A stretch of DNA of 26,313 nucleotides from a virus (lineage: Duplodnaviria; Heunggongvirae; Uroviricota; Caudoviricetes). Positions within the stretch are counted from its first letter, which is position 1. The number at the start of each line of letters is the position of its first letter. A program made the position numbers and the translations under genes. Below the pieces are notes generated by a model, which saw only the letters and a program-made list of their open reading frames with translations, searched no databases and was not told the origin of the DNA. Of this stretch, positions 1,765 to 23,688 are shown piece by piece. The stretch lies in the IMG/VR virus record IMGVR_UViG_2687453108_000014; one strand, given 5' to 3'.

Positions 1765-4098
1765 TTATTTCGCTGCAAACTCATCGCATTTTGGCAACCA
1801 GTCAGCATTGCTTTCCTCTCTTAGGGCCAGATTAGTCTGCATTCCTTGATTGGTCCGTCGTTTCTCATACTGCAGCCCATATTCCTTGAGCATTAACGGT
1901 AGCCCCTTGCCAAACATGGTCAGACTGAGCGTATTTTTATAGCCGTTAGCCTCCATGTAGACCAGATAGGCATGGTAGAGGTAAGTTCGAGGCTGACGTG
2001 GAACAATATTAGCGTTCCCCATAAACATGCCCGTGGTGTCAGGTAGGACCTCAAGGTAGCCGCAAAAATCAAAAGCTGAATCAGCATCACGTTTGATGGT
2101 GAGCGCTTCATCGGAGTTCTGCTGTGACTGAAGCAATGTCCTGGCACTCATTGGGTCGCTGAAACGCTGCATAAGCTGGCGAACAATCACCGCTAGCTCA
2201 CTGGCAATTTTCTCTTTGAGCTGGGTATCGCGTTCCTCCGGGGCTATCTGGTCGGGGAAATGCAGGATCACCCTTCGGCGTGAAACTCCACCACTACGAT
2301 CAGTGAAGCGCATCGGATTATTGTTCACAGCCAGGATGACCGCCGGGATGTGGGTTGAATAGGCGTTCTGATATTTGGGATCAACGGATACCGCATCGCC
2401 GCCAGTGATGGCTTTTAGTCCGGCCCCGTCACCGCTCCACTTTTCCTGGTCGGGAAGTCGAATCAGTGAAAAACCTATTAACGCAGCTCGTTCTCTTGGC
2501 GACTCAAGCATTTCAATGGTTGCCGAGGTCGCGTTATCTTCACCCGCCAGCATGGTTGCTATTTCAGCAAGAATACTCTTTCCACTTCCGCCAGGGCCAG
2601 TGACCTCCAGAAACAGCTGCCAGTCATAACGGTTAGCCAGCACCATAAACAATGCAGCCAGAATAATGTCCCGTTTTTCAGGATTAAAACCTGCGGCACG
2701 ATCCAGCCAGCGCCAGAATGCCGGGGCATGGGTTTCCAGTGACTCACCGTCAACGGGCTGCGTGTAATCCACCTCGCACAGCGTACGTAACCAGTGCTTC
2801 TTATCGTGCGGGCTGAACAATCCTGTCCGGGTATCGAGCACACCGTTGCGAAATCCGATAAGTTGCCGCGCCGGATTCTGCTGTTGCGGAACGATCAGTT
2901 TGAGGGTTTCCACGAGAGACGCAATTTTCGCGGATGAAAAAGGTGCGTCGAGGCGCTGAAACAGCGCAGCGACATCACGGGCAAAATCGGCGTAATAGAT
3001 AACTTTCCAGGCCCCCGCCTCATAGCGTGAAAGGAGCTGCCCGTTCGGGTCTACTGCCAGTGAATTTTTATAGTGATCCACTACCCTCTGCGCTTTTTCG
3101 CTGACGCTCAGCGCGGTAAATTCAGCTTCGCTCATTGTGTCGAAGGGGCTGGCAACAGCTGGTTTTATTACTTCATGAATTGCATGCCGGGTGGCTTCTT
3201 CGCCGTTTTGCGTGAATGCATCGTTCCAGTCACCAAACACAGGCGGGAGCGCCATTGTGCAATTGCAGGCCCCGGTAACAGCTGCGCCCCTTGTTTGCCC
3301 CGCACCGTTGAGATCGCGGTCAGCAGCAATAATTATCTGGTGCGTTGGGTACTCACTGCAGGCAATGCTCGCCAGGGAAAGGAAATTGACGGACGAAAAG
3401 GCCACCATGACAGCATCGCCAGTCAGATAGTTGATAGTAAGTGCGGTGGCATATCCTTCCGCTATCCAGAGCCGTTTGGCTGCTTTGGCAGTACCTTCAA
3501 CCAGGTAAAAGGCATTCTTAACCTGACCGCCTTTAAGGAAGCATTTGCCCCCATTAGCGTTGATTAACTGCAGATTTACCAGCTCTCCATCTGCATACAA
3601 TGGAACGACAAGATCTCCCGCGCGAAATGCCACACCACCGACTTTATGCATAGCGGTTAATTCCCGGCAAGGCAGTGCAGGAAACCCTTTACTCGTCAGA
3701 TAGGCATTGCCAGTGGTCTGGCGGGACTTATCAAACAAACGGGCAGCCAGCACTGCTGCAGCTTTTCTCCCGTCCTCTTTTTCAGGAGAACCAGATTCAA
3801 GCATTCCCTGAGATACTGGCAGCAGGTTTCCGATAATGCCGTTTATTCTGTCTGCCGCTTCACTAATGCCTACATCCAGTACTTTACTTACAAGCGCCAG
3901 GCCATCACCTGCCCCGCACTGGTTACAGAACCACGTTCCCCGCCCTTCCTGGTCATCAAATCGAAAGCGGTCTTTCCCGGCACAGACCGGGCAGGGCTGG
4001 TGCCGATTTTTCAGTACATTTACGCCCAGCGCAGGTAAAATTCTTGACCAGTGACCCCGAGCTGCTTTCTCAGCCTGGCTAACTTTCATTCCTGACAT
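1765..4098 (-). CDS. P4 alpha-type primase-helicase
   Basis: N-terminal zinc motif CPVCAGKDRFRFDD...CNQCG, central TOPRIM-like region, C-terminal Walker A GPGGSGKS. Start placed at the internal Met (MSGMKVSQ...), which removes the overlap with the upstream ORF. Confidence 0.88.
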   Translation of the reverse strand: MSGMKVSQAEKAARGHWSRILPALGVNVLKNRHQPCPVCAGKDRFRFDDQEGRGTWFCNQCGAGDGLALVSKVLDVGISEAADRINGIIGNLLPVSQGMLESGSPEKEDGRKAAAVLAARLFDKSRQTTGNAYLTSKGFPALPCRELTAMHKVGGVAFRAGDLVVPLYADGELVNLQLINANGGKCFLKGGQVKNAFYLVEGTAKAAKRLWIAEGYATALTINYLTGDAVMVAFSSVNFLSLASIACSEYPTHQIIIAADRDLNGAGQTRGAAVTGACNCTMALPPVFGDWNDAFTQNGEEATRHAIHEVIKPAVASPFDTMSEAEFTALSVSEKAQRVVDHYKNSLAVDPNGQLLSRYEAGAWKVIYYADFARDVAALFQRLDAPFSSAKIASLVETLKLIVPQQQNPARQLIGFRNGVLDTRTGLFSPHDKKHWLRTLCEVDYTQPVDGESLETHAPAFWRWLDRAAGFNPEKRDIILAALFMVLANRYDWQLFLEVTGPGGSGKSILAEIATMLAGEDNATSATIEMLESPRERAALIGFSLIRLPDQEKWSGDGAGLKAITGGDAVSVDPKYQNAYSTHIPAVILAVNNNPMRFTDRSGGVSRRRVILHFPDQIAPEERDTQLKEKIASELAVIVRQLMQRFSDPMSARTLLQSQQNSDEALTIKRDADSAFDFCGYLEVLPDTTGMFMGNANIVPRQPRTYLYHAYLVYMEANGYKNTLSLTMFGKGLPLMLKEYGLQYEKRRTNQGMQTNLALREESNADWLPKCDEFAAK

Positions 4099-4111
4099 TG
4101 TGCGGCCCTCC

Positions 4112-4435
4112 TTAGTGCAGCGCTGGTTTGTTGAGGTGACGGGAACAAAGTTCATCCATGACCGTCATTCCGAGCAGTGAGAGAACCGGACAGGCTTTAA
4201 GCGGCCCCGACTCCATCAGATCCGAAAGCAACGCGCAGGCAATTTCCAGCCCTCTTTGCTGCCCATGCTGGCGCAGATAGAACCCTTCCAGCTCGCGGGC
4301 TATGGCATCTTCAAGTTCAGCGAGCGTCAGGCCGGAATAACGTTCCTGATGATTGCTTAGAGCCAGCCAGGCACAGGCAACGGCACGGCGATACAGAGCG
4401 GCACGAAGTGCCAGAAGAGATTCACAGCATATCAT
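4112..4435 (-). CDS. Hypothetical protein in the P4-like early region
   Basis: ORF co-directional with and just upstream of the primase gene; no recognisable motif. Confidence 0.45.
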
Positions 4436-6400: not shown

Positions 6401-7153
6401 ATGACAATCCCAGAACAGAACAATAACCCGATCGTTGAAATTTCTATCCCTGTTTCGACGCAACAGGCGCTTGAGAAAGTGAATGCCACCAAATCTGCAT
6501 GGCTTGAAGCACGTCGTCAGCAAAAAGCGGCAGCGGATAATATTGCGACAATCCGCCAGCGCCGCGCTGAAATGGAAGCCACGACGAACGCCCTGAATGA
6601 GGAGTGGCGCACGCTATTTCGTGAAAGTCAGGGCGTAGTCTCAAAGGAAATGAAAAAACTGCGCACGGAAATTGCGCTGGGACGAGAAACGCTTGAGGAT
6701 TTTGATGAGCTGCTGGCGGCTCAGGAAAGCGAAAATGCACTTTTGCCGCAGGAGGCTGCGGAATTAGCCGGAAAGTATATCCACGCGCACGACACCCTTG
6801 TGGGTATTCGCGCAAAACAAATCTGGGAAGATTTTATGCAGTCGCATGGAAAAGCACTAATCCAGACACTAAGCCTGCTCAAATCAACAATGGGCAGGGA
6901 AGCCAGCGCAGTTGTCGGTGTGGTGCATTCAGTTAATGACCCGGACACACTGCTGAAAGATTTTATTCATAAACATATCACCAGACCGGCTCTGACTAAC
7001 GATGCGATGCCCGAACAGGACCCCGTGTTTAAACTGGCGGGAGTTGCCCCGGATTATGCGGCCCGTCTGGATTTCAGTAATAAACTCTCTCCAGCAGCTA
7101 TGCATAAAATGAAGGTTCGTCAGGAACGTGCTGAGAAGGAGAAAGCAGTATGA
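6401..7153 (+). CDS. sid: Sid-like capsid size-determination protein
   Basis: 250-aa coiled-coil-rich protein first in the sid-psu-delta block; shares the FMQ-HG-AL motif with the adjacent Psu-like gene. Assignment is from position and recalled similarity. Confidence 0.55.
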   Translation: MTIPEQNNNPIVEISIPVSTQQALEKVNATKSAWLEARRQQKAAADNIATIRQRRAEMEATTNALNEEWRTLFRESQGVVSKEMKKLRTEIALGRETLEDFDELLAAQESENALLPQEAAELAGKYIHAHDTLVGIRAKQIWEDFMQSHGKALIQTLSLLKSTMGREASAVVGVVHSVNDPDTLLKDFIHKHITRPALTNDAMPEQDPVFKLAGVAPDYAARLDFSNKLSPAAMHKMKVRQERAEKEKAV

Positions 7154-7701
7154 TGGCCCGAGTCACTCCAGACCAAGCGCTTATCAGTTTTAGAAATGCC
7201 CGTATTCTGTGGGCTGGACATAGTGAGAGCCGAAAAGCCGTTGAACAACAGATAGAATCACTCCTCACTGCCATGGAAAAACCAGCAGATTATGCTCGAC
7301 AGCTCGAATTACAGCGGGAACATCTGGATGTGCTGAAATGGCAAATTAACTGTGCTGCGCGCGAATGCATTTACTCGCAGCATCAACTGATGGAGGCCTG
7401 CACAGAAGACGCTCTCAGCAATTTTATGCAGGCGAATGGAGCAGCCCTGACATCTGCACTGGCTCCGTTCCTGAAGGGGCGCGGAGGGGTTGACGTTGCG
7501 TCCCGTATATTACGCAATGCTCTGGTTCGCCAGCTGGCAATAACACCGCCTGAAATTGCCGGGGATTATCGTATGATTCTGGATGAATCCGGTGTGATGC
7601 CTGACCCCATGATGGTTCGTGATTGCCAGAGCTCTTACACCCCTGCACAACAACTGCGCTTTCAGCAACGTCTGGATTACATTAACGGCATGCAGGAGTA
7701 A
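7150..7701 (+). CDS. psu: Psu-like polarity suppression protein
   Basis: 183 aa; KWQINCAARECIY and FMQANGAALTSALAPFL resemble what I recall of P4 Psu; start overlaps the sid stop (ATGA). Confidence 0.65.
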   Translation: MMARVTPDQALISFRNARILWAGHSESRKAVEQQIESLLTAMEKPADYARQLELQREHLDVLKWQINCAARECIYSQHQLMEACTEDALSNFMQANGAALTSALAPFLKGRGGVDVASRILRNALVRQLAITPPEIAGDYRMILDESGVMPDPMMVRDCQSSYTPAQQLRFQQRLDYINGMQE

Positions 7702-7706
7702 TATTA

Positions 7707-7979
7707 ATGGCACTTAAATGTCCCGAATGCGGTACGACGGCACACGCCAGAACCTCCGCCTATGAAGCACCATCGGTTAAACGCTCATGGTATCAGTGCC
7801 AGAATCTTGAATGTTCCTACACATTTACCGCACTGGAAAGTGTGGATACGATAATCATGAAGCCCCGGCGCAATGAACAGGAATCAGAGAAAGCACAAAT
7901 GCCGGAAAAACAACAGCAAACTCTCAATCGCTATGGCTCCGCGTCAAAGCTGTCAAGCCGTCAGCAAATTCCTGTCTGA
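7707..7979 (+). CDS. ogr: Ogr/Delta-family zinc-finger late transcription activator
   Basis: CPECG...AHARTS...YQCQNLECSYTF matches the Ogr/Delta zinc-finger pattern of P2/P4-type elements. Confidence 0.85.
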   Translation: MALKCPECGTTAHARTSAYEAPSVKRSWYQCQNLECSYTFTALESVDTIIMKPRRNEQESEKAQMPEKQQQTLNRYGSASKLSSRQQIPV

Positions 7980-8027: not shown

Positions 8028-8388
8028 CGCCTTTTCCCTGGCTGGCCTGAGAGCGCATGAGTGCATGTCTATAGCGCATGAAAACGCATGATTCTCATGC
8101 ACCATTTTTGACGCGAAAGCCCTTGTGTGGTGGCTTCTGAGACGATTTGCGGAATGCATGAAAACCAGTCTGTTAAGCGAAGCGAGCAGGCGTGGGGGGC
8201 TGCGCGCGCTAAGGGGTTAGATTATAAAATATCAAACGCCGGTGAGATCCATTATTGTGGAACCACCCGAAGGAAGTGTAGAGGCGAAAGTACCCAAAAT
8301 AATTTTGCAAATTATTTAGAAATGAACTGAGCGCTCGAAACGAAATATAATTTCGAGCACCCCAATTAGCAGTTATATTTTTAATGTA

Positions 8389-10207
8389 TTAAACAGGATA
8401 AAAACCAGAGCTTCCATTCTTATTTAAGTTATGGATTTTATTTGCATCATTAATTTTTATTTGGAACGTCGGACCTTTATTCTCAAGAATTACAATCTGG
8501 AAATTATAGTCCCTTTTGATTAATGCGTGATAAAATGAATCACTGAGACTGACGCTATTAACATCCGATAGAGAACCCCCTCTATCTTTATCAAAGTGCG
8601 TCACTAATGGACTATCAAGCACAACAAATCCAATGAATGGATTCCCTTTTCTTGATAAAAATTCCGCAAAGCAAATGGTAAATATAGCATGCATTACTGC
8701 ACGGGTACCTTTACCAAACATTCCTCGGCGTTTCCCATTGATATTAAAGTCATATGTATCTTCGTCAAATCGCACTTTGTTATCTTTAGAATTTTCAAAA
8801 TTTATATCATTCAAAAAGTCTTGCATCGCTATTTCTATATCATACAAATCAGCTACTGTTAAGGAGTCAAAGTCCTCGGCGGAGTATTTAAGTTCGTCAA
8901 CATCATCTTCTTTATCTTGTAATGAAGATAGAATGCTATGTTTTGTGTGATCCATTAAAAGATTGTCTTTATATTCATAAAGTGATTCAAGAGATGAATG
9001 TATTGTTTTATATTTTTATCTTCTAACGTCTTAAAATCACTTTTTTCTGATTGATAAATTTCATTAACATCATTTTTTCTTAACATAATTAATTCATGTT
9101 CGCGAACATTAGATCCGATTGATTCAATTAATCCTTTCAGCTGGCTTTTGATTTTCAATTTTTCTGCATTACACGACAAAAAACAATCATCATATGATAT
9201 TTCATTTTCTTTTTTTGCGGTGTATTACAGAACTCACAATAAATATCTGCAAAATTATTTAAATAGAAATTCGCCTGTGATACAACATCTATTCTTTGTA
9301 GATCTATAAAGTATTGGTCTTTAAGAAGACTAAATCTTTCAATGAGTAATGATAAGTATTTTTCCCTGTCACTGATTGAATATAATTCATCACTTAACTC
9401 TTTTAATAATTGCTTCTTATCATCAAGTGCATCAACAATACCTTTCAATATATCTTTCGATGATTCAATATCTTGCTCTACTTTCTCAAGTTCTCTTGAA
9501 ACAATGACTTGATCATATTCAGGATAAATTAATTGCGCTTTCAATTCCTCATAAATATTTGCAATTTGATTTTTTTAAAAATATCTTGCTTTTTTATTTG
9601 GTTTTTCTGCTAAGGAGTTAGTATCATCTCTCTGAGTTAAAAGGAATTTAAATTCAGACTTTCTTTTTGTCTCCTCGCTAGGAATATCAGAAAGAATTAA
9701 CGACTTCTCAGTTAACACTCTTAATTCATCAATACAAAAAAATTCAAAAACATTATTAAGATTAAATTTATGAAGAGTATTACTTAAGTTTGTTCTTACT
9801 TTAGCCTCTTTGAAATTCAACCTACCATAAAAGTATGATGAAAAACTCTTTTTAGACGAAGCACTTTTGGAAAAAACCATCAACAGATTAGCTTCACTAA
9901 CATTTTCAATACTCGAATCATATAATCTGTAATGGGCGCTATCCTGAAGAGACCTCTCAATTGTCATTACCCTACCTTGAAAATTAAATTCCAGATAGGC
10001 TAAATCATAACCTTGAGCATGATCGATATCTTTATTTTTTAGTTTTTCACTCCCTAATAAATATCGAATCAAATAATATATGTATGTTTTTCCAGAGTCA
10101 GAACCACCATATAAAATAGTCAATTTAGAACCAAATTCAATTATAGCATCTAATTTATTGAATCCGGTTACCTTTATTTTTCTGAACGTAAAAAAATTGT
10201 CATTCAT
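8389..10207 (-). pseudogene. SMC/ABC-like ATPase (component 3), split into four ORF fragments by one in-frame TAA and at least one frameshift
   Basis: N-terminal fragment has an SMC-type Walker A (FRKIKVTGFNKLDAIIEFGSKLTILYGGSDSGKT); the middle is coiled-coil-like; the last fragment has a Walker-B-like FVVLDSP. Fragments 9578-10207 and 9155-9574 are in the same frame separated by TAA at 9575-9577. Fragments 2 and 3 use TTG starts. Confidence 0.5.
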
Positions 10208-10658
10208 AATTAAATTCCATATCATATTTGCCAATTTTATTTTTTATAATTGATTGCAACTGCTCATCAGGAATATCACTATATAACTTAACCACCAAAT
10301 TTATATTATGCTCCATCTGCGCAACATATTCATTATGTAGAGAATTTGTAAATGCATATGTTTTTTCAGAAGCTTTATATACAAAACCACGATGTGTATA
10401 AATTTTTGAGGCTAGTTCATAGCCTTGCAACAAAGCCAATGATTCTAAAACAATCTCTCGTTTTAGGGCTAACTGAGCATCTCTACGGGGTATTGGAGGA
10501 TGAAGACTAATCTCTTCAGGTAAAAAATCCTTAAGATTTACTAAAATAAAATCAAAACAAATAAGCCGTTCAAGGCTTAATGAAGAAGGATAAATAGCGA
10601 CGAGCACTTTCGCCATTCGACATGCCACTTCTAAACTTGAATTATAAATTCTAACCAT
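10200..10658 (-). CDS. Small protein (component 2), about 152 aa from the internal ATG
   Basis: ATG at 10656-10658 overlaps the upstream stop (TAATG) and its own stop overlaps the ATPase start (ATGAATGA); no recognisable motif. Confidence 0.5.
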   Translation of the reverse strand: MVRIYNSSLEVACRMAKVLVAIYPSSLSLERLICFDFILVNLKDFLPEEISLHPPIPRRDAQLALKREIVLESLALLQGYELASKIYTHRGFVYKASEKTYAFTNSLHNEYVAQMEHNINLVVKLYSDIPDEQLQSIIKNKIGKYDMEFNYE

Positions 10659-11275
10659 TATCTCACCGTCCAAATTACTTCACCATCATTAACCAAATGA
10701 TGGCATATTCCTTTTTTATCATTTGCTTCACATATTTTTGATAGTACTGAATGTGCAATTGGTGTCAGAACAGCCTGCTTCAAGACTGCATTACACCTAA
10801 TAAATGCATAATTATGGTCTTCATAAAAGACGGGTTCAATTGAAGATGAAATGTAACATTTCAATGCTTTGAATACATCATCTTTAAATACTTCGCGGAC
10901 AAAAACCTCAAGCGAAGATGCAAAATAAAAATCATTTCTACTATTATTAAAGTGTCGTCTGTATGGATCATCAAGCTCTAAGAAAGAACTATAAGTTTTA
11001 TTTCCATGCTCTGAATAGGCTTGAAGCAGTGCATTAACATATACAGACTCTTTTTTTGAATTGTATGTTGGAATTTCATTTGGAGGGATTCTCACGACAT
11101 ACAGCTCGTTAAAGTACTTAAAATAAAGGTGTGTATTTGCAATATCATTTAAAATCAATGATAAGGGTAGAGAGTAAAAAATACTAAAATCAAAATCCTC
11201 AATATATTTTTTTATTTCATCATCTAATGGAATATCAATCTTTTTAGTTATTTTTTTGAAATTGCTGAATCCCAT
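10658..11275 (-). CDS. Hypothetical protein, probably the C-terminal part of the upstream nuclease-like gene
   Basis: Overlaps the upstream ORF by 28 nt in another frame exactly at an A7 run (11251-11257); its own RBS is weak; a 1-nt change in the run would fuse the two into about 340 aa. Confidence 0.45.
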   Translation of the reverse strand: MGFSNFKKITKKIDIPLDDEIKKYIEDFDFSIFYSLPLSLILNDIANTHLYFKYFNELYVVRIPPNEIPTYNSKKESVYVNALLQAYSEHGNKTYSSFLELDDPYRRHFNNSRNDFYFASSLEVFVREVFKDDVFKALKCYISSSIEPVFYEDHNYAFIRCNAVLKQAVLTPIAHSVLSKICEANDKKGICHHLVNDGEVIWTVR

Positions 11276-11664
11276 GAATCAAGGACTGCTTTTTTAAGCT
11301 CGTTTTTATTTTTCAATAAATTAGAAAATGTAGTAGATAAATCATAGGGTGCCACAAAAAAGTACTTCTGAGGGATGGGATAATCACCATTCAGAGTAAA
11401 ATAGATAAGTTTTCCAAACTCAACTACAACATCAGAGAACCCTAAACTTTTTTTGTACAGTTTGCATTGATAATTATCCCAAGAATAACCTTCTACGTTA
11501 GGATCCGATTTATATCCAACAACGTCTCTACCTTTATCTCCAGCTCCTCCCAAACGTTCGCTCCACGGGTAATCATCTGATTTACAGACAATAAGCCAAT
11601 CATGGACAAATACCTCCCATTGTTCATCATCCCATGTCAATATTTCCGAAAGTGGTTGAGACAC
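11248..11664 (-). CDS. PD-(D/E)xK (Mrr/Cap4-like) nuclease-domain protein (component 1, N-terminal part)
   Basis: ERLGGAGDKGRDVVGY ... NYQCKLYKK resembles the G-x-GD-x-G-x-D ... QxK catalytic core of Mrr-type nucleases; GTG start 7 nt after AAGGAG, directly downstream of the integrase stop. Confidence 0.5.
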   Translation of the reverse strand: MSQPLSEILTWDDEQWEVFVHDWLIVCKSDDYPWSERLGGAGDKGRDVVGYKSDPNVEGYSWDNYQCKLYKKSLGFSDVVVEFGKLIYFTLNGDYPIPQKYFFVAPYDLSTTFSNLLKNKNELKKAVLDSWDSAISKK

Positions 11665-11667: not shown

Positions 11668-12849
11668 TTAACTCCTTTTTAGTCTTTCAAATATCAAATT
11701 ACTGTACCAGTCCATCATAGACTTCCTTCCACTAAAATATTGAGCATGGTTATAAGTCCCCCTAATAGAATTTTTATCTACATGAGCCAACTGGATTTCA
11801 ATCCAAGCACTCTCAAAACCTTGCTCATGCAGGATTGTAGAAAGGGTATGACGAAAACCATGTCCAGTGACTTTTCCTCCATACCCAATACGCTTAATGG
11901 CTTGATTTATACTCGCTTCGCTCATTGGCCTATTCGGATCGTTCCGCCCTGGAAAAACATAACGATAGTTCCCTGTCATGATCTTGAGTTCATTGAGTAA
12001 ATCTACCGCTTGAGATGATAAGGGCACAAGATGTGGCCTACGCATTTTCATCCTTTCAGCAGGAATTTCCCAAATAGCGTTATCCAGATCAAATTCTTGC
12101 CATAATGCCGCGCGTAATTCGATGGTTCTCACACCCGTAATCATCAGTAATTTCGTGGCTATCTGGACAAGCTTACTCCCGGAGTAACCCTCTAAGGCAC
12201 GTAGAAAATCAGGTATCTCATCAGCTTTTAGGAATGGGAAATGATTGGATTGGTGTACTTCGAGAGCGCTGGAGAGATCAGCCGCAGGATTGTACTCCGC
12301 CCTACCCGTTGCAATTGCGGGGCGGTTCACTTCGGAGCAACGCTGCCGCACTTTGCGCATTTTCTCCAACGCACCACGTTTCTCAATTTTACGCAGAACG
12401 TTCAGCAGCTCTAGCGGTTTAATCTCTCCCACAGGCCTTGTTCCGACATAAGGAAAAATGTCGTTCTTAAACGCTTCCATGATGTCTGATGCATATCCCG
12501 CCGACCATTTAGCAGATTTAAGTTGATGCCACTCTCTGGCTATCTTTTCGAAGGCGTTCTCTGACTCTGTTTGCATAGCTAGCTTTTGCTCTTTTCGAAC
12601 CTCACTAGGGTTCTTTCCTTCTGCCACAAGTTTTCGAGCTTCATCACGACGGGAACGAGCATCGGCAAGGGTGATCGTTGGGTAAACACCAAGCGAGATC
12701 ATTTTGGGTTTGCCGGCATAGCGATAGCGGAACCGCCAACTCTTGCTTCCATTAGGTTCTATAAGTAATGACAACCCTAGCCCATCTCCAAATGTATAGG
12801 CTTTAGCTTCAGGCTTAGCGCGGCGAATCTGCATATCGTTTAAAGGCAT
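11668..12849 (-). CDS. int: P4-type tyrosine integrase
   Basis: P4-type N-terminal arm-binding region (MPLNDMQIRRAKPEAKAYTFGDGLGLSL...) and catalytic HxxR (GHGFRHTL) and Tyr (RGTYNHAQY) motifs; lies next to the partial thrW repeat. Confidence 0.9.
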   Translation of the reverse strand: MPLNDMQIRRAKPEAKAYTFGDGLGLSLLIEPNGSKSWRFRYRYAGKPKMISLGVYPTITLADARSRRDEARKLVAEGKNPSEVRKEQKLAMQTESENAFEKIAREWHQLKSAKWSAGYASDIMEAFKNDIFPYVGTRPVGEIKPLELLNVLRKIEKRGALEKMRKVRQRCSEVNRPAIATGRAEYNPAADLSSALEVHQSNHFPFLKADEIPDFLRALEGYSGSKLVQIATKLLMITGVRTIELRAALWQEFDLDNAIWEIPAERMKMRRPHLVPLSSQAVDLLNELKIMTGNYRYVFPGRNDPNRPMSEASINQAIKRIGYGGKVTGHGFRHTLSTILHEQGFESAWIEIQLAHVDKNSIRGTYNHAQYFSGRKSMMDWYSNLIFERLKRS

Positions 12850-12904
12850 GTGTATAGGAATCCAGACCGAACAGGAACATATACACAATCCTATACACAT
12901 TCAG

Positions 12905-13010
12905 TACCGGATTCTACTGGATGGTTACGGACTACTATGGACTTAAAAGAATAAAAAATGTTATAAATCAGAGATTTTATGGACTAATACGGACGTTTGA
13001 GGAAGTTGAG
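12905..13010. promoter_or_regulatory. Candidate integrase arm-type binding repeats
   Basis: Repeated TACGGAC / TATGGACTA motifs between the int start and the att core. Confidence 0.3.
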
Positions 13011-13012
13011 AT

Positions 13013-13058
13013 GGTGCCGATAATAGGAGTCGAACCTACGACCTTCGCATTACGAATT
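13013..13058 (-). repeat. 46-bp partial thrW 3' end, the att junction between the two elements
   Basis: Exact 46-bp identity to 24870-24915 (3' portion of thrW); diverges at 13059. Confidence 0.85.
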
Positions 13059-13338
13059 ATAAGAATCCGCTTCTAATTCAAAGCATTACCCCATCAACAC
13101 TGCGCTCACACGTCCCACCACATCAAAACATGTAAAGCCTTGCAAGCCATTGCGAGGCCTTATGTGTCTCAGTTTTGTCCCACCTTGTATTACGACTTGC
13201 ATAGCCAATGAAGATAAACGTGACGACAAACGGCGCAGCAGTCTTCTTTTCTTTCACGACTTCTCCAGCATGCATACCTTTCTGCCATGACTGAAGTGAA
13301 TGCCTGTTATGAGCAAGGATTGGCCCAGATGAATCGCC

Positions 13339-13504
13339 CTGGACTGTTGCGATCGTGAAGCCATAGACTGGGCCGCAAGCACGGGAGGTTACGATAAAGC
13401 GACAGTGCAGGATGTCATGTTAGGAGCGATAGAAAAACGCTTTGGCGATAAAGTACCGGAACAGTCCATCCAGTGGCTGACAGATAACGGTTCAGCGTAT
13501 AGAG
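13339..13504 (+). pseudogene. IS2-family (IS3 superfamily) transposase remnant, upstream part, interrupted by the IS629-like element
   Basis: Translates to ...[51 protein letters not shown], resembling an InsD-type C-terminal region; the frame continues after the IS. Confidence 0.55.
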
Positions 13505-13558
13505 TGAACCGCCCCGGAAATCCTGGAGACTAAACTCCCTGAGAAAGAGGTAAACAGG

Positions 13559-13885
13559 ATGACTAAAAATACTCGTTTTTCCCCCGAAGTCCGTCAGCGG
13601 GCGATTCGTATGGTTCTGGAAAGTCAGGATGAATATGACTCACAGTGGGCGGCAATTTGTTCCATTGCCCCAAAGATTGGCTGTACGCCGGAGACTCTGC
13701 GTGTCTGGGTTCGCCAGCATGAGCGGGATACCGGGGGCGGTGATGGTGGGCTCACCAGCGCTGAACGTCAGCGTCTGAAAGAGCTGGAACGTGAAAATCG
13801 TGAACTGCGCCGCAGTAACGATATCCTTCGCCAGGCTTCCGCTTATTTTGCGAAGGCGGAGTTCGACCGCCTCTGGAAAAAATGA
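13559..13885 (+). CDS. IS629-like OrfA (HTH)
   Basis: [23 protein letters not shown]... with leucine-zipper-like C-terminus, typical of IS3-family OrfA. Confidence 0.85.
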
Positions 13886-14772
13886 TGCCACTGCTGGATA
13901 AGCTGCGTGAGCAGTACGGGGTCGGACCGGTATGCAGCGAACTGCATATTGCCCCGTCAACGTATTACCATTGTCAGCAACAGCGACATCATCCGGATAA
14001 ACGCAGTGCCCGTGCGCAGCACGACGACTGGCTGAAGAGAGAGATACAGCGCGTATACGATGAAAATCATCAGGTGTACGGTGTGCGTAAAGTCTGGCGT
14101 CAGTTGTTACGGGAAGGAATCAGGGTGGCCAGATGTACAGTGGCACGTCTCATGGCGGTTATGGGACTTGCCGGTGTTCTCCGGGGTAAAAAGGTCCGTA
14201 CGACCATCAGCCGGAAAGCCGTTGCCGCAGGCGACCGCGTAAACCGTCAGTTCGTGGCAGAACGACCTGACCAGCTGTGGGTGGCTGATTTTACTTACGT
14301 CAGCACATGGCAGGGCTTCGTCTATGTGGCGTTTATCATTGATGTGTTTGCCGGATACATCGTGGGGTGGCGGGTCTCATCGTCTATGGAAACGACATTC
14401 GTGCTGGATGCGCTGGAGCAGGCGTTGTGGGCCCGTCGTCCGTCTGGCACCATCCATCACAGCGATAAAGGCTCTCAGTATGTGTCACTGGCCTATACGG
14501 AGCGACTAAAAGAAGCCGGATTACTGGCATCAACAGGGAGTACAGGCGACTCGTATGACAACGCGATGGCTGAGAGCATCAATGGTCTTTACAAAGCGGA
14601 GGTAATACACCGTAAGAGCTGGAAAAACCGTGCAGAAGTGGAACTGGCCACACTAACGTGGGTGGACTGGTATAACAATCGACGATTGCTGGGAAGGCTG
14701 GGCCATACTCCTCCGGCAGAAGCAGAAAAAGCTTATTATGCTTCCATCGGAAACGATGATCTGGCAGCCTGA
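13882..14772 (+). CDS. IS629-like OrfB (DDE transposase)
   Basis: DDE-type catalytic region (...WVADFTYV..., ...HHSDKGSQY..., ...DNAMAES...); overlaps orfA as expected for programmed -1 frameshifting. Confidence 0.85.
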
Positions 14773-14817
14773 GTTCACAGATAAAACACTCTCCAGGAAA
14801 CCCGGGGCGGTTCAGAG

Positions 14818-15083
14818 CGCATGAAACACGGCAGTTCGCCAGAGAGTTGAATCTGGAGCCCTGCACAACGGCAATCAGCAGTCCTCAGAGTAATGGAATT
14901 GCAGAAAGGTTCGTGAAAACGATGAAGGAAGACTACATCGCGTTCATGCCGAAACCGAATGTAAGAACGGCATTGCATAATCTTGCAGTGGCGATCGAAC
15001 ATTACAATGAAAACCATCCGCACAGTGCGTTGGGTTATCGCTCTCCGCGAGAATATCGACGTCAGCGGGTAACGTTAACTTAA
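14818..15083 (+). pseudogene. IS2-family transposase remnant, downstream part (C-terminus)
   Basis: ...[36 protein letters not shown]...[14 protein letters not shown]... continues the frame of 13339-13504 once the IS and one GAG copy are removed. Confidence 0.55.
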
Positions 15084-15124
15084 GATACCCCCCCTGTCTG
15101 GAAATAAGGGGGCAAGAACAATGA

Positions 15125-15868
15125 TCAGATTCCCTGGTGAGTAAGAATTTTACTTTCTGAACTCCTCTGAGAGTATTGACTTGGAGAAACACCAAAATAA
15201 CGTCTAAATACATAAGTAAAGTATGAGACACTGGCATAACCACAGACCTTAGCTACTTTACTAATAGGATAACAACGAGTGCTGAGTAAATATTCAGCCA
15301 TTTGCATCCTCTCATCAAGTATGATCTTACTGAATGATACCCCCTCTTCTTTCAATTTCCTCTTTAGTAAACTTTCGCTGAGATATAATCTTGATGATAT
15401 ATCCTTAAGACGCCATGGTGCAGATAAATCCGTATGAATAATCGTTTTAACTTTAGCCCCTGTGCTTTTCAAACATCCAAACAGAAATACTCCAAATTGT
15501 TTTTCAGAAGAAAATGCAGAGAGACATGTAAAAGCAATAGACTCATCAAAAATTTCTATGTATTCAGCACAGTGATTAGCCCAACTAATTAATCCTTTAA
15601 TTAAACTGAAGTCAGCAAAGTTTATTTTTAAATAAGATGGATATTCCCTACAATCAGAAATATCCCTTAAGTTATTAGCTTTCAAATAGCGACTAATAAA
15701 CTCAGCGCCAAAATCCGCCACTATCACTCTTTCAGGATATGTCAGGAAAAAATCTCTAGAGCTAGAGTCGACAAGTACAGATGAACCTCTCTCCAGAAAC
15801 ACACTCTCTTTTCCGAAATAAACATCAAAGGACTCCAAAATCAATATAACTGAACATGTAGTTGCCAT
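15125..15868 (-). CDS. AraC/XylS-family transcriptional regulator, AppY-like
   Basis: C-terminal double HTH (WRLKDISSRLYLSESLLKRKLKEEGVSFSKIILDERMQMAEYLL...VCGYASVSYFTYVFRRYFGVSPSQY); overall layout resembles prophage-borne AppY-type regulators; gene is AT-rich. Confidence 0.8.
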   Translation of the reverse strand: MATTCSVILILESFDVYFGKESVFLERGSSVLVDSSSRDFFLTYPERVIVADFGAEFISRYLKANNLRDISDCREYPSYLKINFADFSLIKGLISWANHCAEYIEIFDESIAFTCLSAFSSEKQFGVFLFGCLKSTGAKVKTIIHTDLSAPWRLKDISSRLYLSESLLKRKLKEEGVSFSKIILDERMQMAEYLLSTRCYPISKVAKVCGYASVSYFTYVFRRYFGVSPSQYSQRSSESKILTHQGI

Positions 15869-16450
15869 ATCATCCCCCCAATTTAACTGAAACCAGGATG
15901 AAGTATATGTATATAAAGTTCACTTTGCCAAACTTCAGTATAAAAAACCACTAAAAATAGGGTGTGATAAAAAATACCGTAACAATAAAGCAAAGGATTA
16001 TAAATTCCGTTACAGTTACAAATGATACTCAAGAAACAATTCCTTAGGAAAAACTTATTTACAGCCAATAAGTAAGACACTTATATGATATCAAGTTTTC
16101 ATAAAACATAACTAGGCTAAATAGCTGCGCCTAATACCGCTACACTTTTGCCAGCCCATGTTTGCCTCCGGGTATTGACCCCTTCTCTACGCAACTTCAG
16201 TTCCCACCACCAACTTTGCGGCAGCTTTGTAGGATCAATGTCTAAAAGAATAATGGTGACCGATAAGAAAACGACTGAATAACTGCAGATTTTCGCTCAA
16301 AACCTTCCTGTCAGATCCATAGCGAATCAAGTGCTGAATGTCACAGTATCGAACAGAAAACAGTGACGATCTAACCCTTCAAGAATATTCTACGATTGTT
16401 CTGTTTAGGAAAAGCAAGACGGGAAGTCGGGAGATAAGTCATTGATAAAG

Positions 16451-16512
16451 TGGCGGAGAGAGGGGGATTTGAACCCCCGGTAGAGTTGCCCCTACTCCGG
16501 TTTTCGAGACCG
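16451..16512 (-). other. 62-bp 3' fragment of a tRNA-Ser(CGA) gene (serU-like), att-type remnant
   Basis: Reverse complement reads CGGTCTCGAAAACCGGAGTAGGGGCAACTCTACCGGGGGTTCAAATCCCCCTCTCTCCGCCA: anticodon arm with CGA, long variable arm, T-arm and acceptor 3' end; the 5' half is absent. Confidence 0.7.
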
Positions 16513-16595
16513 ACCCGATCATCAAACGAAACATAAAATTAGCTCACATTATGAGGAAAGGTATCTTTTTGCGCTATGTAAATTCAAAGGGTTAG

Positions 16596-17465
<870 letters not shown>

Positions 17466-17522
17466 ATCTTCAAGTGGTAAGCATAAACCGCAGCACGATC
17501 TTGCATACGACGTGCTACGGTT

Positions 17523-18077
17523 TCATTTATCTCCGGCCGGAAACTTCTTATACAGTGTCGATACACCAACATCATAGATGATCGCTACCTTCTGGCGAGG
17601 AATTCCTGCTGCAATTAATCGTCCGGCCTGCGCCCATTGTTCTGGTGTAAGTTTGGGACGACGTCCACCAATTCGTCCCTGTGCGCGAGCAGCTTCCAGT
17701 CCAGCTTTTGTTCGTTCAACAATCAGTTCTCGTTCCATTTCAGCCAGGGCCCCCATCACATGAAAGAAAAAGCGCCCCATTGGGGTACTGGTATCAATAG
17801 CATCCGTCAGGCTGCGAAAATTAACGCCACGTTCGCGCAACTCCTCAACCAGAATGACCAGATGCCGCATACTGCGCCCCAGCCGATCCAGTTTCCAGAC
17901 AACCAGAGTGTCACCTGCCGATAATGTCCTGAGCAGTTTTTTCAGTCCCGGCCTTTCGGACTTTGTACCGCTTATCTTGTCTTCAAAAATCAGCTCGCAT
18001 CCTGCACAGTTCAGCGCATTACGTTGTAGATCTGTGTTCTGGTCATTTGTTGACACACGTACATAGCCAATAAGCAT
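17523..18077 (-). CDS. pin: Pin/Gin/Hin-family serine DNA invertase
   Basis: MLIGYVRVSTNDQNTDLQ... with catalytic Ser and C-terminal HTH; lies next to a hix/gix-like site and an invertible segment. Confidence 0.9.
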   Translation of the reverse strand: MLIGYVRVSTNDQNTDLQRNALNCAGCELIFEDKISGTKSERPGLKKLLRTLSAGDTLVVWKLDRLGRSMRHLVILVEELRERGVNFRSLTDAIDTSTPMGRFFFHVMGALAEMERELIVERTKAGLEAARAQGRIGGRRPKLTPEQWAQAGRLIAAGIPRQKVAIIYDVGVSTLYKKFPAGDK

Positions 18078-18141
18078 GGTAGATCTCCCTGACAAAAGCA
18101 GGAATGATGCCATTTGCTCGTTATTTCTGCATTTTCATAAA

Positions 18142-18167
18142 CGTTGGTTTGGGAGAAGGTGCTCCAG
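18142..18167. repeat. Invertase crossover site 1 (hix/gix-like, 26 bp)
   Basis: Reverse complement TTCTCCCAAACCAACGTTTATGAAAA resembles hix/gix sites and matches 19971-19996 in inverted orientation over TTCTCCCAAACCAA-GTTT. Confidence 0.7.
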
Positions 18168-18388
18168 CTATTGGCGTTCCGTTTCTGGCCGTCCGCTGCA
18201 ATGCCAATACTGTAATCGACAGCTGGTCCTGTATGGTGTTTTTGAAGTTCAACGGCGCGAAATTCTCTGCCACTGATTATCCTGTGCTGGCGAAAGTGTT
18301 TCCTTCGCTGGTATTACCTGAAGCCGCGGTGATTTCATTCGTATCTGGGATGACGGGCGAGGTGCAGACGGTGGTCGCGAATTATTAA
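18168..18388 (+). other. Promoterless alternative tail-fibre C-terminal segment (Sv')
   Basis: Frame runs on from the crossover site: ...GAPAIGVPFLAVRCNANTV...KFNGAKFSATDYPVLAKVFPSLVLPEA..., a tail-fibre-like motif. Confidence 0.45.
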
Positions 18389-18594
18389 GCTGGCAGGCAG
18401 CTACAACTTTCTCAGTTTGCCGGGAATATAGGCGAAGGTGCGGGACACGCAATTAACTTTCATGATGGCATCGCCGGAAATCAGCCAGGATTTTCACGAT
18501 TTAATTTCACCAGTAACTCTGTGGGTGATGGTGTGAATTTTGTTGCAGTCAGACCGCGAAATATTGCATTTAACTTTCTGGTGAGGGCTAAATA

Positions 18595-19185
18595 ATGAAC
18601 CTGTTTTTGATGAAAATGGGCTGGCTACAGTGCCGGGCGATATGCGTTGTTTTTATTATGATGCTGAAACATCTGAGTATACGGCTGGTCTGATGAATAT
18701 ATTAATACTGGCGTAAGTATGCCCGCCTGTTCCACTGGTATTGACCCTGGCGAAAACATTCCGGGAAGAGTGGCAGTATTTACAGGTAAGGGATGGAGCC
18801 ATGAAGAAGACCATCGCAATGAGACTGTTTACTCAATCGAAAATGGCGCAGCTGTTACAGTGGATTATATCGGTGCCATCAAAGACGGTTATGTCACGAT
18901 TTCACCGTTAACGCCATACGATAAATGGGATGGTGAGAAATGGGTGACAGACACTGAGGCACAACACAGTGCCGCAGTAGACGCGGCAGAAGCACAGCGC
19001 CAATCACTGATTGATGCAGCAATGGCTTCCATTAGTCTGATTCAGCTGAAGTTACAGGCCGGACGGAAACTGACTCAGGCAGAACAACCCGACTTAACGC
19101 CGTGCTGGATTACATTGACGCGGTGACGGCAACAGATACCAGCACCGCGCCGGATGTCATCTGGCCTGAACTGCCGGAGGCGTAG
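18595..19185 (+). pseudogene. Tail fibre assembly gene (tfa'), frameshifted
   Basis: Tfa-like middle region (TPYDKWDGEKWVTDTEAQ...) in one frame, conserved C-terminus (LNAVLDYIDAVTATDTSTAPDVIWPELPEA) in another; the N-terminus after ATG 18595 is in a third. Confidence 0.55.
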
Positions 19186-19586
19186 GCCATTCAATATCTG
19201 GCGCACCGGAAGTATCGACCAGCTCCAGTGCGTCCAGATAATCCAGCCACAATTATATTGCGTCAGTTCGTCACCTTTCAGACGACCAATAGCCGCTTTA
19301 CCGGGCCATTGCTTACTGTTCATGTATTCGTTGGCCTGGTTAATTAGTAGCTGTCTTTCTGATTCAGTAATTTCAATAAGCTCTTCATGCGTGGGTGGAG
19401 GAATATCTGCCACGCAGGCAGCCCATCATCTCCGGCAATACGGATTTTCCTTGTGGCGGTTCAGCCATAAACTCACTGATAATATTTTGATTTACTTCCT
19501 TAGCGTCTGATAAATCCCATCCCTCTGATTTATATTTATCAATCATATCCACAGGGAAAAAGCATTATGCCTTGCGCTATAAACAT
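19157..19586 (-). pseudogene. Tail fibre assembly gene (tfa), multiply frameshifted
   Basis: Starts MDEYVYSARHNAF then stops; DIPPPTHEELIEITESERQLL... and the conserved C-terminus WLDYLDALELVDTSGAPDIEWPTPPAVQAR are each in different frames; 3' end overlaps tfa' antisense. Confidence 0.55.
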
Positions 19587-19616
19587 ATTCGTCCATATAA
19601 ATCACCCTGAATAAAA

Positions 19617-20339: not shown

Positions 20340-20632
20340 GCCCCTACATCAAAACCACTGATGAATTCGTTATCCATATCAAAACCAAAAAATTTAGAGC
20401 CTTCCGATGGAGTTTCCACCGAAGGTGTTTCAATGCCCCCCGCCCATACCCCGGCGGCTTTTACTGTTAGATACCCCTGTTTAATTGCCGCAATTAACTC
20501 ACGCGATACATCTGAAATATCAGTATCAGGAAAGACCCAGACCGATATCGTCATGTCCTGGTTATCGATGTTGGCGATCCGACGCATCTGCTCACGGTCA
20601 AAGTTAACCATCTGTGCGGCGATGTTTTTCAT
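20321..20632 (-). pseudogene. Deletion fusion: lambda P codons 1-21 joined to the 3' end of a tail/baseplate gene
   Basis: First 21 residues (MKNIAAQMVNFDREQMRRIAN) match lambda P; downstream sequence is unrelated and ends overlapping the stf start, as the last gene before a tail fibre would. Confidence 0.65.
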
Positions 20633-21528: not shown

Positions 21529-21560
21529 AATGACTCCTGTTGATAGATCCAGTAATGACC

Positions 21561-21854: not shown

Positions 21855-21972
21855 ATGTAAGTATTTCCTTAGATAACAATTGATTGAATGTATGCAAATA
21901 AATGCATACACCATAGGTGTGGTTTAATTGGATGCCCTTTTTCAGGGCTGGAATGTGTAAGAGCGGGGTTAT

Positions 21973-22182
<210 letters not shown>

Positions 22183-22195
22183 TTAGTACATGCAA

Positions 22196-22266: not shown

Positions 22267-22270
22267 TTAA

Positions 22271-22987
<717 letters not shown>

Positions 22988-23573: not shown

Positions 23574-23587
23574 AAAACATACAGATA

Positions 23588-23650: not shown

Positions 23651-23688
23651 AGCACATCAGCAGGACGCACTAACCACCATGAAGGTGA

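Follow-up and report, generated by a model that had tools for sequence, protein, structure and literature searches.

Short type II Lamassu systems (LmuACB) are the closest described relatives of the locus analysed here, and are represented by DdmABC of Vibrio cholerae (9NY5/9NYG) and LmuACB of Salmonella enterica. They have the following traits in common with it: the gene order lmuA-lmuC-lmuB; an LmuB of about 600 aa with a Walker A motif (K40), a Walker B motif of the form hhhhD[Q/S/T/E] and a coiled coil; a small LmuC; and an LmuA composed of an N-terminal PD-(D/E)xK nuclease and a C-terminal docking domain. The Walker B motif is part of the published definition of short Lamassu (PMC12663957). 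In the solved Lamassu systems, the Walker A mutant LmuB K40A is inactive, and the zinc hook, the ATP-binding motifs and the interfaces of the LmuA C-terminal domain are required. This domain docks on LmuB/LmuC and mediates tetramerisation (PMC12663957). By analogy with the published homologues, intact LmuB would form a Rad50/SMC-like ATPase dimer equipped with coiled coil and zinc hook, and would, together with LmuC, keep LmuA inactive via the LmuA C-terminal domain. Once the complex detects the ends of phage DNA, or replication structures, hydrolysis of ATP would free LmuA, which would then tetramerise through its C-terminal domain, and its nuclease would destroy DNA and thereby abort infection. 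This model is drawn from the Cap4-type homologues of V. cholerae and Salmonella, not from an Mrr/CTD6-type system.

Known from earlier work (Rousset et al. 2022, PMC9122126; PMC13586616), the defence hotspot of P4-like satellites has the integrase on one side and psu/delta on the other, and its cargo consists of AT-rich foreign cassettes; the operon analysed here is placed likewise. Recognisable defence pseudogenes are reported to be rare in P4 (<1%), and systems to be swapped before decaying (PMC13586616). One such cargo, termed ‘Lamassu-var’ (Domainator cluster 1; E. coli O55:H7 TB182A, CP038295:4116517-4120474), is described as having ‘3 to 9 CDSs’ and as occupying 259 of 910 hotspots (PMC11754643). 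Locus and satellite are the very ones described below.

The window, which is the whole 26,313-nt stretch of DNA analysed, has E. coli O157:H7 as its host and the P4-like satellite prophage Sp2 as its element. Judged from its sequence, the minus-strand region 8389-11664 is very probably what is left of a Lamassu operon, lmuA-lmuC-lmuB, of the short, type II kind, which real mutations inactivated genetically in a stepwise manner. All fragments and lesions of the operon described below are on this strand. The operon is located between the Sp2 integrase and ogr/delta-psu-sid. The tyrosine integrase (11668..12900, minus strand) forms the upstream edge of the hotspot, and the sid-like, psu and ogr/delta genes (6401..7979, plus strand) form the other edge, both according to RefSeq annotation; the alpha primase of Sp2 is at 1765-4155. 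The operon thus occupies the position of variable cargo in a P4-like defence hotspot. Pantoea alhagi has the same int ... delta-psu layout with intact cargo, the integrase being placed in the same arrangement relative to the operon and Pfam Psu and Ogr_Delta matching at the equivalent position. Directly after the lmuB stop codon there is a terminator-like hairpin with a 13-bp stem (8329..8362, minus strand), which likely marks the operon end. The GC content of the operon is 30.9%, versus 45-50% in the flanks, and A/T runs of at least 6 bases number 21 in the operon and one in the flanks.

The assignment to Lamassu is carried by intact orthologues. The operons of Proteus mirabilis (P0001) and Pantoea alhagi (P0002) are intact and encode proteins of 335, 152 and 606 aa within 3279 nt. 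The PADLOC profiles match the Proteus proteins with E values of 2e-87 for LmuA, 3.3e-35 for LmuC and 3.4e-117 for LmuB (LmuB residues 6-605), and also match the window fragments. A profile of 20 LmuB homologues searched against the PDB matches LmuB of V. cholerae from the LmuABC complex structure (9NY5/9NYG), as well as 9HQU and 9UXL (‘DUF3732 domain-containing protein’), followed by Rad50 and SMC. LmuB or LmuA as single-sequence queries against PDB sequences gave nothing meaningful, a profile of LmuA homologues found no solved relative in the PDB, and NCBIfam holds no model for LmuA, LmuB or LmuC. The Walker A, hhhhDS-type Walker B and CxxC motifs of LmuB agree with the short Lamassu definition in PMC12663957. 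Three differences set the locus apart from described LmuACB systems: its effector has an Mrr-like head and a CTD6 tail instead of Cap4, its LmuB type has one CxxC zinc hook while the V. cholerae protein has none, and the window copy is a pseudogene array with lmuA in two pieces and lmuB in four. The name ABC-three component (ABC-3C) system is a domain-based one for the same family, with Pfam MC2 (PF20288) and CTD6 (PF20282) matching at E ~1e-30, from which the locus differs solely by its inactivation.

As in Rad50/SbcC and SMC ATPases, the ABC head of LmuB is interrupted by a coiled coil that bears a CxxC hook. The likeness is confined to the N-terminal head, where the profile matches Rad50 and SMC at E = 5e-8 to 1e-7. 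Canonical members of these families exceed 1000 aa and have a kleisin or Mre11/SbcD partner, whereas LmuB, with 606 aa overall, has a far shorter coiled coil. Its Walker B diverges (DS), it is set in a defence island, and its partners are MC2 and CTD6 proteins with no Mre11/SbcD among them. The resemblance is one of superfamily, not of membership.

The earlier sequence-only reading left out lmuA, which is frameshifted as well (10658-11664). The 5′ fragment (138 codons, 11248..11664) encodes the N-terminal Mrr-like PD-(D/E)xK nuclease domain of the effector and matches the PADLOC LmuA profile PDLC03852 at E = 9e-41 over profile positions 10-140 of 336. The columns of its nuclease motif D43, D47 and Q66-C67-K68 are invariant in 24 LmuA homologues, four of which match Mrr_cat (PF04471). 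The 3′ fragment (205 codons, 10658..11275) encodes the C-terminal domain CTD6 (Pfam PF20282, E = 7.7e-30) and covers positions 141-333 of the same PADLOC profile. When aligned with the intact operons of Proteus and Pantoea, lmuA shows a 1-nt deletion at TTTC-AAAAAAA (11251..11258), which splits the 335-codon gene in the linker between the nuclease and the C-terminal domain, and which is present in 7/7 O55:H7/O157:H7 alleles aligned or checked. Addition of one base yields a 335-aa ORF with 310/335 residues identical to the Proteus protein. Nuclease and docking domain are hence on separate ORFs of 138 and 205 codons, while LmuA homologues typically have 335-380 aa (among 120 homologues listed). 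Between lmuA and lmuB lies lmuC (152 codons, 10200..10658), which is apparently intact, matches Pfam MC2 (PF20288) at E = 6e-30, and has a product named ‘ABC-three component system middle component 2’ in RefSeq. It is intact in every lineage examined. With about ten lesions and with lmuC making up 14% of the operon, we estimate its chance of escape at ~22%, and there is therefore no evidence for selective lmuC retention.

In lmuB, the conserved motifs are distributed over separate fragments because of one nonsense codon and two 1-nt poly-A deletions. Fragment 1 (codons 1-210, 9578..10207) encodes the N-terminal ABC/SMC head lobe, matches Pfam AAA_23, AAA_15 and SMC_N, and has a product named ‘AAA family ATPase’ in RefSeq. 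Its Walker A motif GGSDSGKT (G34-T41, including K40) is at 10085-10108 and consists of columns invariant in 20 homologues. The ORF called at 9575..10234 has its true ATG at 10207. As had been read from the sequence, this ORF and the one at 9155..9544 share a frame and are parted only by a TAA at 9575..9577. This codon is the nonsense mutation L211*: O55:H7, 493/89, LSU61, Proteus and Pantoea all have TTA (Leu) at this position, with T in place of the coding-strand A found at 9576 in the window. Fragment 2 (codons 212-330, 9217..9574) continues in the original frame, is co-linear with P0001 and P0002, and encodes the ascending coiled-coil arm and the zinc hook C324-E-F-C327 (9227-9238), whose two cysteines do not vary among 20 homologues. 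The middle region of LmuB is predicted to form the coiled coil and matches only coiled-coil proteins of the PDB.

Directly after the zinc hook, an A7 run (9210..9216) specific to the sublineage of the window causes a -1 frameshift; the run is A8 in Sakai, 493/89, LSU61, O55 and Proteus. Fragment 3 (codons ~334-397, 9018..9209) lies in the -1 frame and encodes the apex and the descending coiled coil. The 74-codon ORF at 8955..9179 is indeed in another frame and downstream of the A7 run, in agreement with the sequence-only reading, and the ORF given there as 8958-9179 corresponds to the TTG-bounded part of fragment 3 plus 20 out-of-frame codons. The two middle fragments do start with TTG in the mechanical ORF list. 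An older -1 frameshift is at an A5 run (9013..9017; A6 in Proteus) and occurs in 7/7 O55:H7/O157:H7 alleles aligned or checked. Fragment 4 (codons ~399-606, 8389..9012) encodes the end of the coiled coil and the C-terminal head lobe, matches Pfam DUF3732 at E = 5.3e-5, and contains a signature-like GKGTRAV motif and the Walker B motif FVVLDS (8611-8628), which has the hhhhD[Q/S/T/E] form. Residues G499, K500, G501, R503, D532, S533 and P534 are invariant in LmuB homologues (n=20). The annotated 188-codon ORF begins at the internal Met419 (8953-8955). It does start at the TAATG overlap (TAA 8955-8957, ATG 8953-8955) pointed out earlier, but the last break is not there: the second frameshift is the one at 9013-9017, ~57 nt upstream. 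The TAATG pseudo-boundary arises because the frame shifted at 9013-9017 meets the TAA at 8955-8957. The two head lobes are thus no longer part of one chain, and lmuB is a pseudogene because L211* and the two -1 frameshifts interrupt it. The locus thus descends from a Lamassu system but is now a pseudogene. The RefSeq record of Sakai already has ECs_0293 as an ‘AAA family ATPase’ pseudogene covering all four fragments.

The proposal of a single SMC-like ATPase gene of about 600 aa is borne out by the intact homologues, which are single 606-aa ORFs (P0001, P0002). The joined fragments align end to end with 34 single proteins of 594-621 aa at 95-100% coverage, with a best E of 0, an agreement well beyond what chance would give. 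Three single-base reversions in lmuB give a 606-codon ORF with 532/606 residues (88%) identical to P0001 without gaps. One base change is enough for the stop codon, as anticipated, while two single-base insertions are needed where one indel had been expected. Operon length falls from 3279 nt (intact copies) to 3277 nt (493/89) and 3276 nt (window), and the gaps are three single bases only.

We compared the alleles of the locus in O55:H7 and O157:H7. It occurs at ≥99% identity in 308 complete E. coli genomes, and no intact gene was found among them. Allele counts were obtained with queries of 601-602 nt, ranked and evenly sampled. The lesions are nested along the line from O55:H7 to O157:H7: two old frameshifts, probably shared by all ~308 genomes, then the nonsense codon, which is typical of O157:H7, and then the A7 deletion. 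The TTA allele is found only in eight O55:H7 strains and O157 strain 493/89 when the 602-nt region is searched, and also in LSU61. Sakai and EDL933 have A8 at 9210-9216, the TW14359/EC4115/TR01 group A7. Of 60 records picked at even spacing from 309, which come from many laboratories, 13 (~22%) carry the A7 allele. Further indels are lineage-specific: LSU61 has an additional A, O55 has lost an A (A6 to A5 in the 9041-9046 run), PV15-279 carries two further 1-nt deletions and IS1203, and ATCC 43888 has a multi-base deletion. All 1-nt indels fall in A/T runs of ≥5 bases. Among changes within E. coli, 10 are nonsynonymous or nonsense and 4 synonymous (~2.5:1). Of the 3279 nt of the operon, 20 columns vary; the 1639 nt of flank have two variable columns (Fisher p = 0.013), and the coding part of the flank has none (p = 0.004). 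This pattern suggests that the decay of the operon is neutral.

Two other explanations of the broken frames were weighed. The sequence-only reading had left open decay or an assembly or sequencing error, and two of the three lmuB lesions do lie in poly-A runs, which are classic sites of homopolymer error. An intact gene hidden behind such miscalls nevertheless has next to no chance of being correct. At least 25 complete genomes among the matches listed have exactly the sequence of the window, and its A7 allele is met again across the sampled records; the alternative alleles are clade-specific instead of scattered, the nonsense codon is a substitution and not an indel, and an intact gene is missing from all 308 E. 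coli genomes. The lesions are genuine because the sequence is shared by dozens of independent assemblies of complete genomes and each lesion tracks the phylogeny, so that only decay stands. Equally negligible is the probability that the fragments are truly separate small genes with the TAA and the TAATG as real boundaries, even though PGAP gives three CDSs in most records (‘AAA family ATPase’ and two hypothetical proteins) and the TAATG overlap resembles translational coupling. Homologues outside the E. coli clade are all single proteins of ~600 aa that align over every junction, and single-base edits restore the frame. The peptide ESLYEYKDNLL is still encoded upstream of the ATG of the 188-codon ORF, as in P0001 and P0002; Met419 is not family-wide, being Ser in P0009; and the number of fragments varies among lineages. 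The intact single 606-aa ORFs of Proteus and Pantoea therefore refute the idea of four separate small genes, the finding that would have overturned a single-gene origin.

A third possibility is that the system is fragmented yet alive, with split polypeptides reassembling, or with ribosomal or transcriptional slippage on A runs, of a contingency type, giving a weak or switchable defence. Rad50-type heads can be reconstituted in vitro from N and C halves, and the heptamer A_AAA_AAG is a slippery, dnaX-type site. The change from A8 to A7 creates this heptamer in phase (9209-9215), and a -1 slip there would exactly restore PQKKENE. Programmed frameshifting at A_AAA_AAG was rejected because a stop codon lies upstream and a frameshift downstream. 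A cloned O55:H7 allele, that of TB182A, reportedly gave smaller T-even plaques, a weak effect confined to the most dilute titres (PMC11754643); the insert also carried the ogr/delta gene and lacked the sequence upstream of the lmuA start. Against residual activity, L211* in the window precedes all other lmuB lesions and, as a substitution-type stop, cannot be bypassed by slippage; three independent recoding events would be required to make full-length LmuB, and one more to make LmuA. The alleles are fixed by clade and do not flip, indels are still accumulating, the nonsynonymous to synonymous ratio is ~2.5:1, and the LmuA nuclease is cut off from its docking and tetramerising domain. A phase-variable contingency locus is likewise not what the genomes show, there being no intact allele in any of the 308, several independent lesions including a substitution, and clade-fixed alleles. 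We regard residual or switchable activity as improbable. A still slimmer chance is given to a complex of split LmuA/LmuB pieces, or of rare poly-A slippage products, with intact LmuC that is weakly active or differently regulated, as hinted by the weak T-even phenotype of the frameshifted O55:H7 allele; a natural ‘split-SMC’ Lamassu is very unlikely for the L211* allele of the window itself.

We thus return to decay by real mutations, and the Lamassu system of the window is genetically dead, an ordinary pseudogene. Slipped-strand errors probably piled up stepwise in a very AT-rich, homopolymer-rich foreign cassette, and this cassette is stuck in an immobile satellite where cargo exchange is no longer possible. 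In Sakai, Sp2 shows no excision, no replication and no packaging (PMC2669165).

A few SNPs and indels distinguish the ‘Lamassu-var’ allele of TB182A from that of the window: it has neither L211* nor the A8 to A7 change, and has lost one A of its own in the run at 9041-9046 (A6 to A5). It already contains the frameshift in lmuA and two in lmuB. Frameshifts or pseudogenes are not mentioned in the available portion of that text (PMC11754643). Since the tested allele already had three frameshifts, its weak phenotype needs re-examination against a repaired operon. The spread in CDS number and the high count of ‘Lamassu-var’ are best explained by progressive fragmentation in one heavily sequenced clone. 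The ‘abundant Lamassu variant’, reported as the commonest P4-like hotspot in E. coli, would be this single clonal locus in progressive fragmentation. In most O157:H7 records of RefSeq, the fragments appear under protein names like any other (‘AAA family ATPase’, ‘hypothetical protein’, ‘ABC-three component system protein’), and defence-system finders call ‘Lamassu’ in O157:H7 where no functional copy is present. Unlike the P4 cargo described in PMC13586616, the Sp2 locus has clearly decayed in place, within a satellite that has lost its mobility. The nested series of lesions from O55:H7 to O157:H7 contradicts the generalisation that systems in P4-like satellites are swapped before pseudogenisation. 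As biology, the process is routine: a costly abortive-infection system decayed in a stranded satellite prophage.

The first reading frame of the ATPase gene lmuB comprises 210 codons on the minus strand, from the ATG at 10207 to the TAA at 9575-9577. After this TAA the same frame runs on to a TGA at 9155-9157, followed by a 74-codon, TTG-bounded ORF in another frame (8955-9179) and a 188-codon ORF (8389-8955) whose ATG overlaps the preceding TAA (TAATG). The sequence-only reading had described fragments 9578-10207 and 9155-9574 as one frame split by the TAA alone, 8958-9179 as lying in a different frame, and 8389-8955 as beginning at the TAATG overlap. This observation is confirmed because both the ORF list and the raw sequence match it, and the frame change reflects a base missing from the A-run 9210-9216. 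Its assignment to an SMC-like ATPase also held: the first fragment matches AAA_23, AAA_15, and SMC_N in Pfam, and the last one DUF3732. An LmuB profile built from 20 homologues matches chains labelled "DUF3732 domain-containing protein" in 9HQU/9HQX, 9UXL, and 9NY5/9NYG (the last two being V. cholerae LmuABC complexes), and then Rad50 and SMC heads.

With the concatenated lmuB fragments as query, 34 proteins were matched, nearly all of them single proteins of 594-621 aa with 95-100% query coverage; the best are from Proteus mirabilis (606 aa, 86% identity) and Pantoea alhagi (606 aa, 73%), in loci whose three ORFs have 335, 152, and 606 codons. In the whole-operon DNA alignment, four intact copies measure 3279 nt, O157 strain 493/89 3277 nt, and the window 3276 nt, and the gaps are only three single bases: one in lmuA (TTTC-AAAAAAA, about 11251-11258), one in the lmuB A-run 9210-9216, found within this alignment in the window only, and one in the lmuB A-run 9013-9017. 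We then repaired lmuB in silico by changing 9576 back to T and inserting an A in both A-runs. The resulting 606-codon ORF has 532 of 606 residues identical to the Proteus protein without a gap, so the expected ORF of about 600 aa is recovered, with two A insertions rather than the single indel proposed. One base inserted in lmuA gives a 335-codon ORF (310/335 identical to Proteus LmuA). The single-ORF homologues and the three-edit repair therefore show that TAATG is no gene boundary, and the reading of four real genes with the TAA as a boundary is refuted. TAATG is further ruled out in this role by a frameshift about 57 nt upstream and by ESLYEYKDNLL, encoded in the same frame ahead of the 188-codon ORF's ATG as in homologues; this ATG is internal Met419, a position occupied by Ser in homologues further removed.

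The operon is a short type II Lamassu with an Mrr-like effector, a known kind of system in a known place, the P4-like hotspot. PADLOC names its products LmuA, LmuC, and LmuB (E = 2e-87, 3e-35, and 3e-117 on intact orthologues). The 152-codon ORF at 10200-10658 matches MC2, the ABC-3C middle component (Pfam, E = 6e-30), and the 205-codon ORF at 10658-11275 matches CTD6 (E = 7.7e-30). A single PADLOC LmuA model covers ORF 11248-11664 with its first half and ORF 10658-11275 with its second. Hence a 1-nt deletion splits lmuA (10658-11664) into two ORFs with a 28-nt overlap, one of 138 codons for the Mrr-like nuclease and the other the CTD6 ORF. Each LmuA homologue is one protein of 324-381 aa; CTD6 is found in all 24 sampled and Mrr_cat in four of these, and D43, D47, Q66, C67, and K68 are invariant among them, so LmuA is an Mrr-like PD-(D/E)xK nuclease. 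In the LmuB homologue alignment, Walker A (G34, S36, D37, G39, K40), the CxxC hook (C324, C327), the signature-like motif (G499, K500, G501, R503), and Walker B (D532, S533, P534) are invariant. These motifs agree with the published definition of short Lamassu, namely a Walker B of hhhhD[Q/S/T/E] and 0-2 zinc hooks (PMC12663957). The lmuA lesion lies outside the stretch considered by the sequence-only reading, and both halves stand as normal proteins in RefSeq. Short LmuA calls (145 and 201 aa) have also been made for one assembly each of Proteus and Pantoea (locus L005 versus L006, and L007 versus L008/L009, respectively). As the L007 DNA keeps the 335-codon lmuA frame open, its short call is a start-codon choice and not a lesion.

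Two explanations had been offered for the broken frames, decay and sequencing or assembly error. Many E. coli O157:H7 chromosomes, TW14359, EC4115, and TR01 among them, carry the 3.4-kb region at 100% identity, and at ≥99% identity it is present in about 308 complete E. coli genomes out of 5426. We aligned six E. coli alleles with a Proteus outgroup and checked the TB182A annotation separately. Two deletions, that in lmuA and that at 9013-9017, are shared by O55:H7 RM12579 and TB182A, by O157 strains 493/89, LSU61, PV15-279, and Sakai, and by the window; the TTA-to-TAA change at 9576 is present in Sakai, PV15-279, and the window and absent from O55:H7, 493/89, and LSU61; the A8-to-A7 deletion at 9210-9216 is confined among the aligned alleles to the window's group. 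A 602-nt ancestral-allele query matches perfectly in exactly nine genomes (eight O55:H7 and 493/89), and among 60 records taken at even spacing from 309, 13 have the window allele and 43 have the TAA with A8. Private lesions are found in the A6 run at 9041-9046 (one A gained in LSU61, one lost in O55:H7), in PV15-279 (A5 to A4 at about 11313, T7 to T6 at 10196, and IS1203 at the 5' end), and in ATCC 43888 (a deletion of several bases). A 344-aa homologue from a Logan assembly joins LmuC up to ...QSIIKN directly to LmuB ...QIANIYEEL..., an in-frame lmuC::lmuB fusion by deletion of the whole N-terminal ATPase head, and hence is a further decay allele of this locus. Alleles that are nested and specific to clades, seen across hundreds of independently assembled genomes, refute assembly error and support a decayed defence module.

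In the Lamassu systems published for V. cholerae and Salmonella, LmuA is sequestered as a monomer in an LmuA1-LmuB2-LmuC1 complex, held by its C-terminal domain at the coiled-coil apex. The complex detects DNA ends or origins of phage replication, and on ATP hydrolysis LmuA is set free and tetramerises via its C-terminal domains, which creates the active nuclease site. Activity is lost in LmuB K40A and in zinc-hook, ATP-binding, head-engagement, and interface mutants. By homology, the intact form of the window operon would work likewise. Here, LmuB translation ends after residue 210, just beyond the Walker A lobe; the zinc hook, descending coiled coil, and Walker B lobe fall in three further frames, and the LmuA nuclease is cut off from its docking and tetramerisation domain, so this copy cannot work in that way. 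The A8-to-A7 deletion leaves CAA AAA AAG, an in-phase, dnaX-type heptamer A_AAA_AAG (9209-9215, minus strand). A -1 ribosomal slip there would give the exact ancestral peptide PQKKENE, and is moot because of L211* upstream and the frameshift downstream. That the fragmented system retains some function is very improbable, and keeps a slight chance only because a less damaged allele has a published weak phenotype: a cloned insert (CP038295:4116517-4120474) made T-even plaques smaller, at the highest dilutions only (PMC11754643). CP038295 is O55:H7 TB182A, whose annotated proteins are those of RM12579 as well (LmuA in 138- and 205-aa pieces, LmuB in 394- and 188-aa pieces), and the insert extends from ogr/delta as far as codon 1 of the 5' lmuA fragment.

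Several features of the locus point to neutral decay. Every 1-nt indel of the operon lies in an A/T run of at least 5 bases. The operon (8389-11664) has a GC content of 30.9% and 21 A/T runs of at least 6 bases, versus 45-50% in neighbouring satellite core genes and one such run in int and delta-psu-sid; by its composition the cargo is foreign, and it presents a large target for slippage. Substitutions among the E. coli alleles comprise nine nonsynonymous and one nonsense versus four synonymous. Variable columns number 20 in the 3279-nt operon versus two in 1639 nt of adjacent satellite sequence (Fisher p = 0.013), both intergenic (p = 0.004 against coding flank). lmuC is the operon's sole intact gene in the window, which is statistically unremarkable, with an estimated chance of ~22% given about ten lesions over the operon.

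The operon is flanked by a tyrosine integrase (11668-12900) and by ogr/delta, psu, and a sid-like gene (6401-7979), with a P4 alpha-type primase further out (1765-4155), a classic defence hotspot of P4-like satellites. The curated Sakai record places it inside "prophage Sp2, P4-like phage", and the Pantoea order int, Lamassu, delta, psu, psu-like is that of the window. Sp2 in Sakai does not circularise, replicate, or get packaged, and Sp13, the P2-like phage that would serve as its helper, is defective (PMC2669165); therefore, Sp2 can no longer exchange cargo. The closest intact operon (89% nt identity; Proteus mirabilis locus L006, 4543-13821) lies outside any P4-like element. Its neighbours are an IS-type transposase, a primase-like gene with DUF927, and another integrase, so this cassette has been passed among distinct mobile elements. 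Beyond the Sp2 integrase, 12900-26313 is a second degraded prophage in tandem, with the following features in order: an IS3-family element (13559-14772), an AraC regulator (15125-15868), a GIY-YIG remnant, a Pin-type invertase (17523-18113), lambdoid O and CI-like genes, a second integrase (23881-24855), tRNA-Thr(CGT) (24870-24945), and proA (25060-26313). The homologous Pantoea alhagi satellite with intact Lamassu (L007-L009) directly adjoins proB-proA, the same chromosomal neighbourhood.

One reference annotation, that of Sakai, already enters the whole 1820-nt stretch as a single pseudogene (ECs_0293, "AAA family ATPase"); most other RefSeq records enter the pieces as separate CDSs. "Lamassu-var", with "3 to 9 CDSs" and a Psu only 31% identical to that of P4, is reported as the commonest cluster among P4-like hotspots of E. 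coli (259/910 hotspots; PMC11754643), and the words pseudogene, frameshift, and truncation are absent from the main text of that paper. We infer that it is abundant because one clone has been heavily sequenced, and that its CDS count varies because of progressive fragmentation. A 2026 survey states that P4 seldom carries recognisable pseudogenes of defence systems (<1%) and that swap precedes decay (PMC13586616); the window locus is an exception to this rule for P4 defence cargo.
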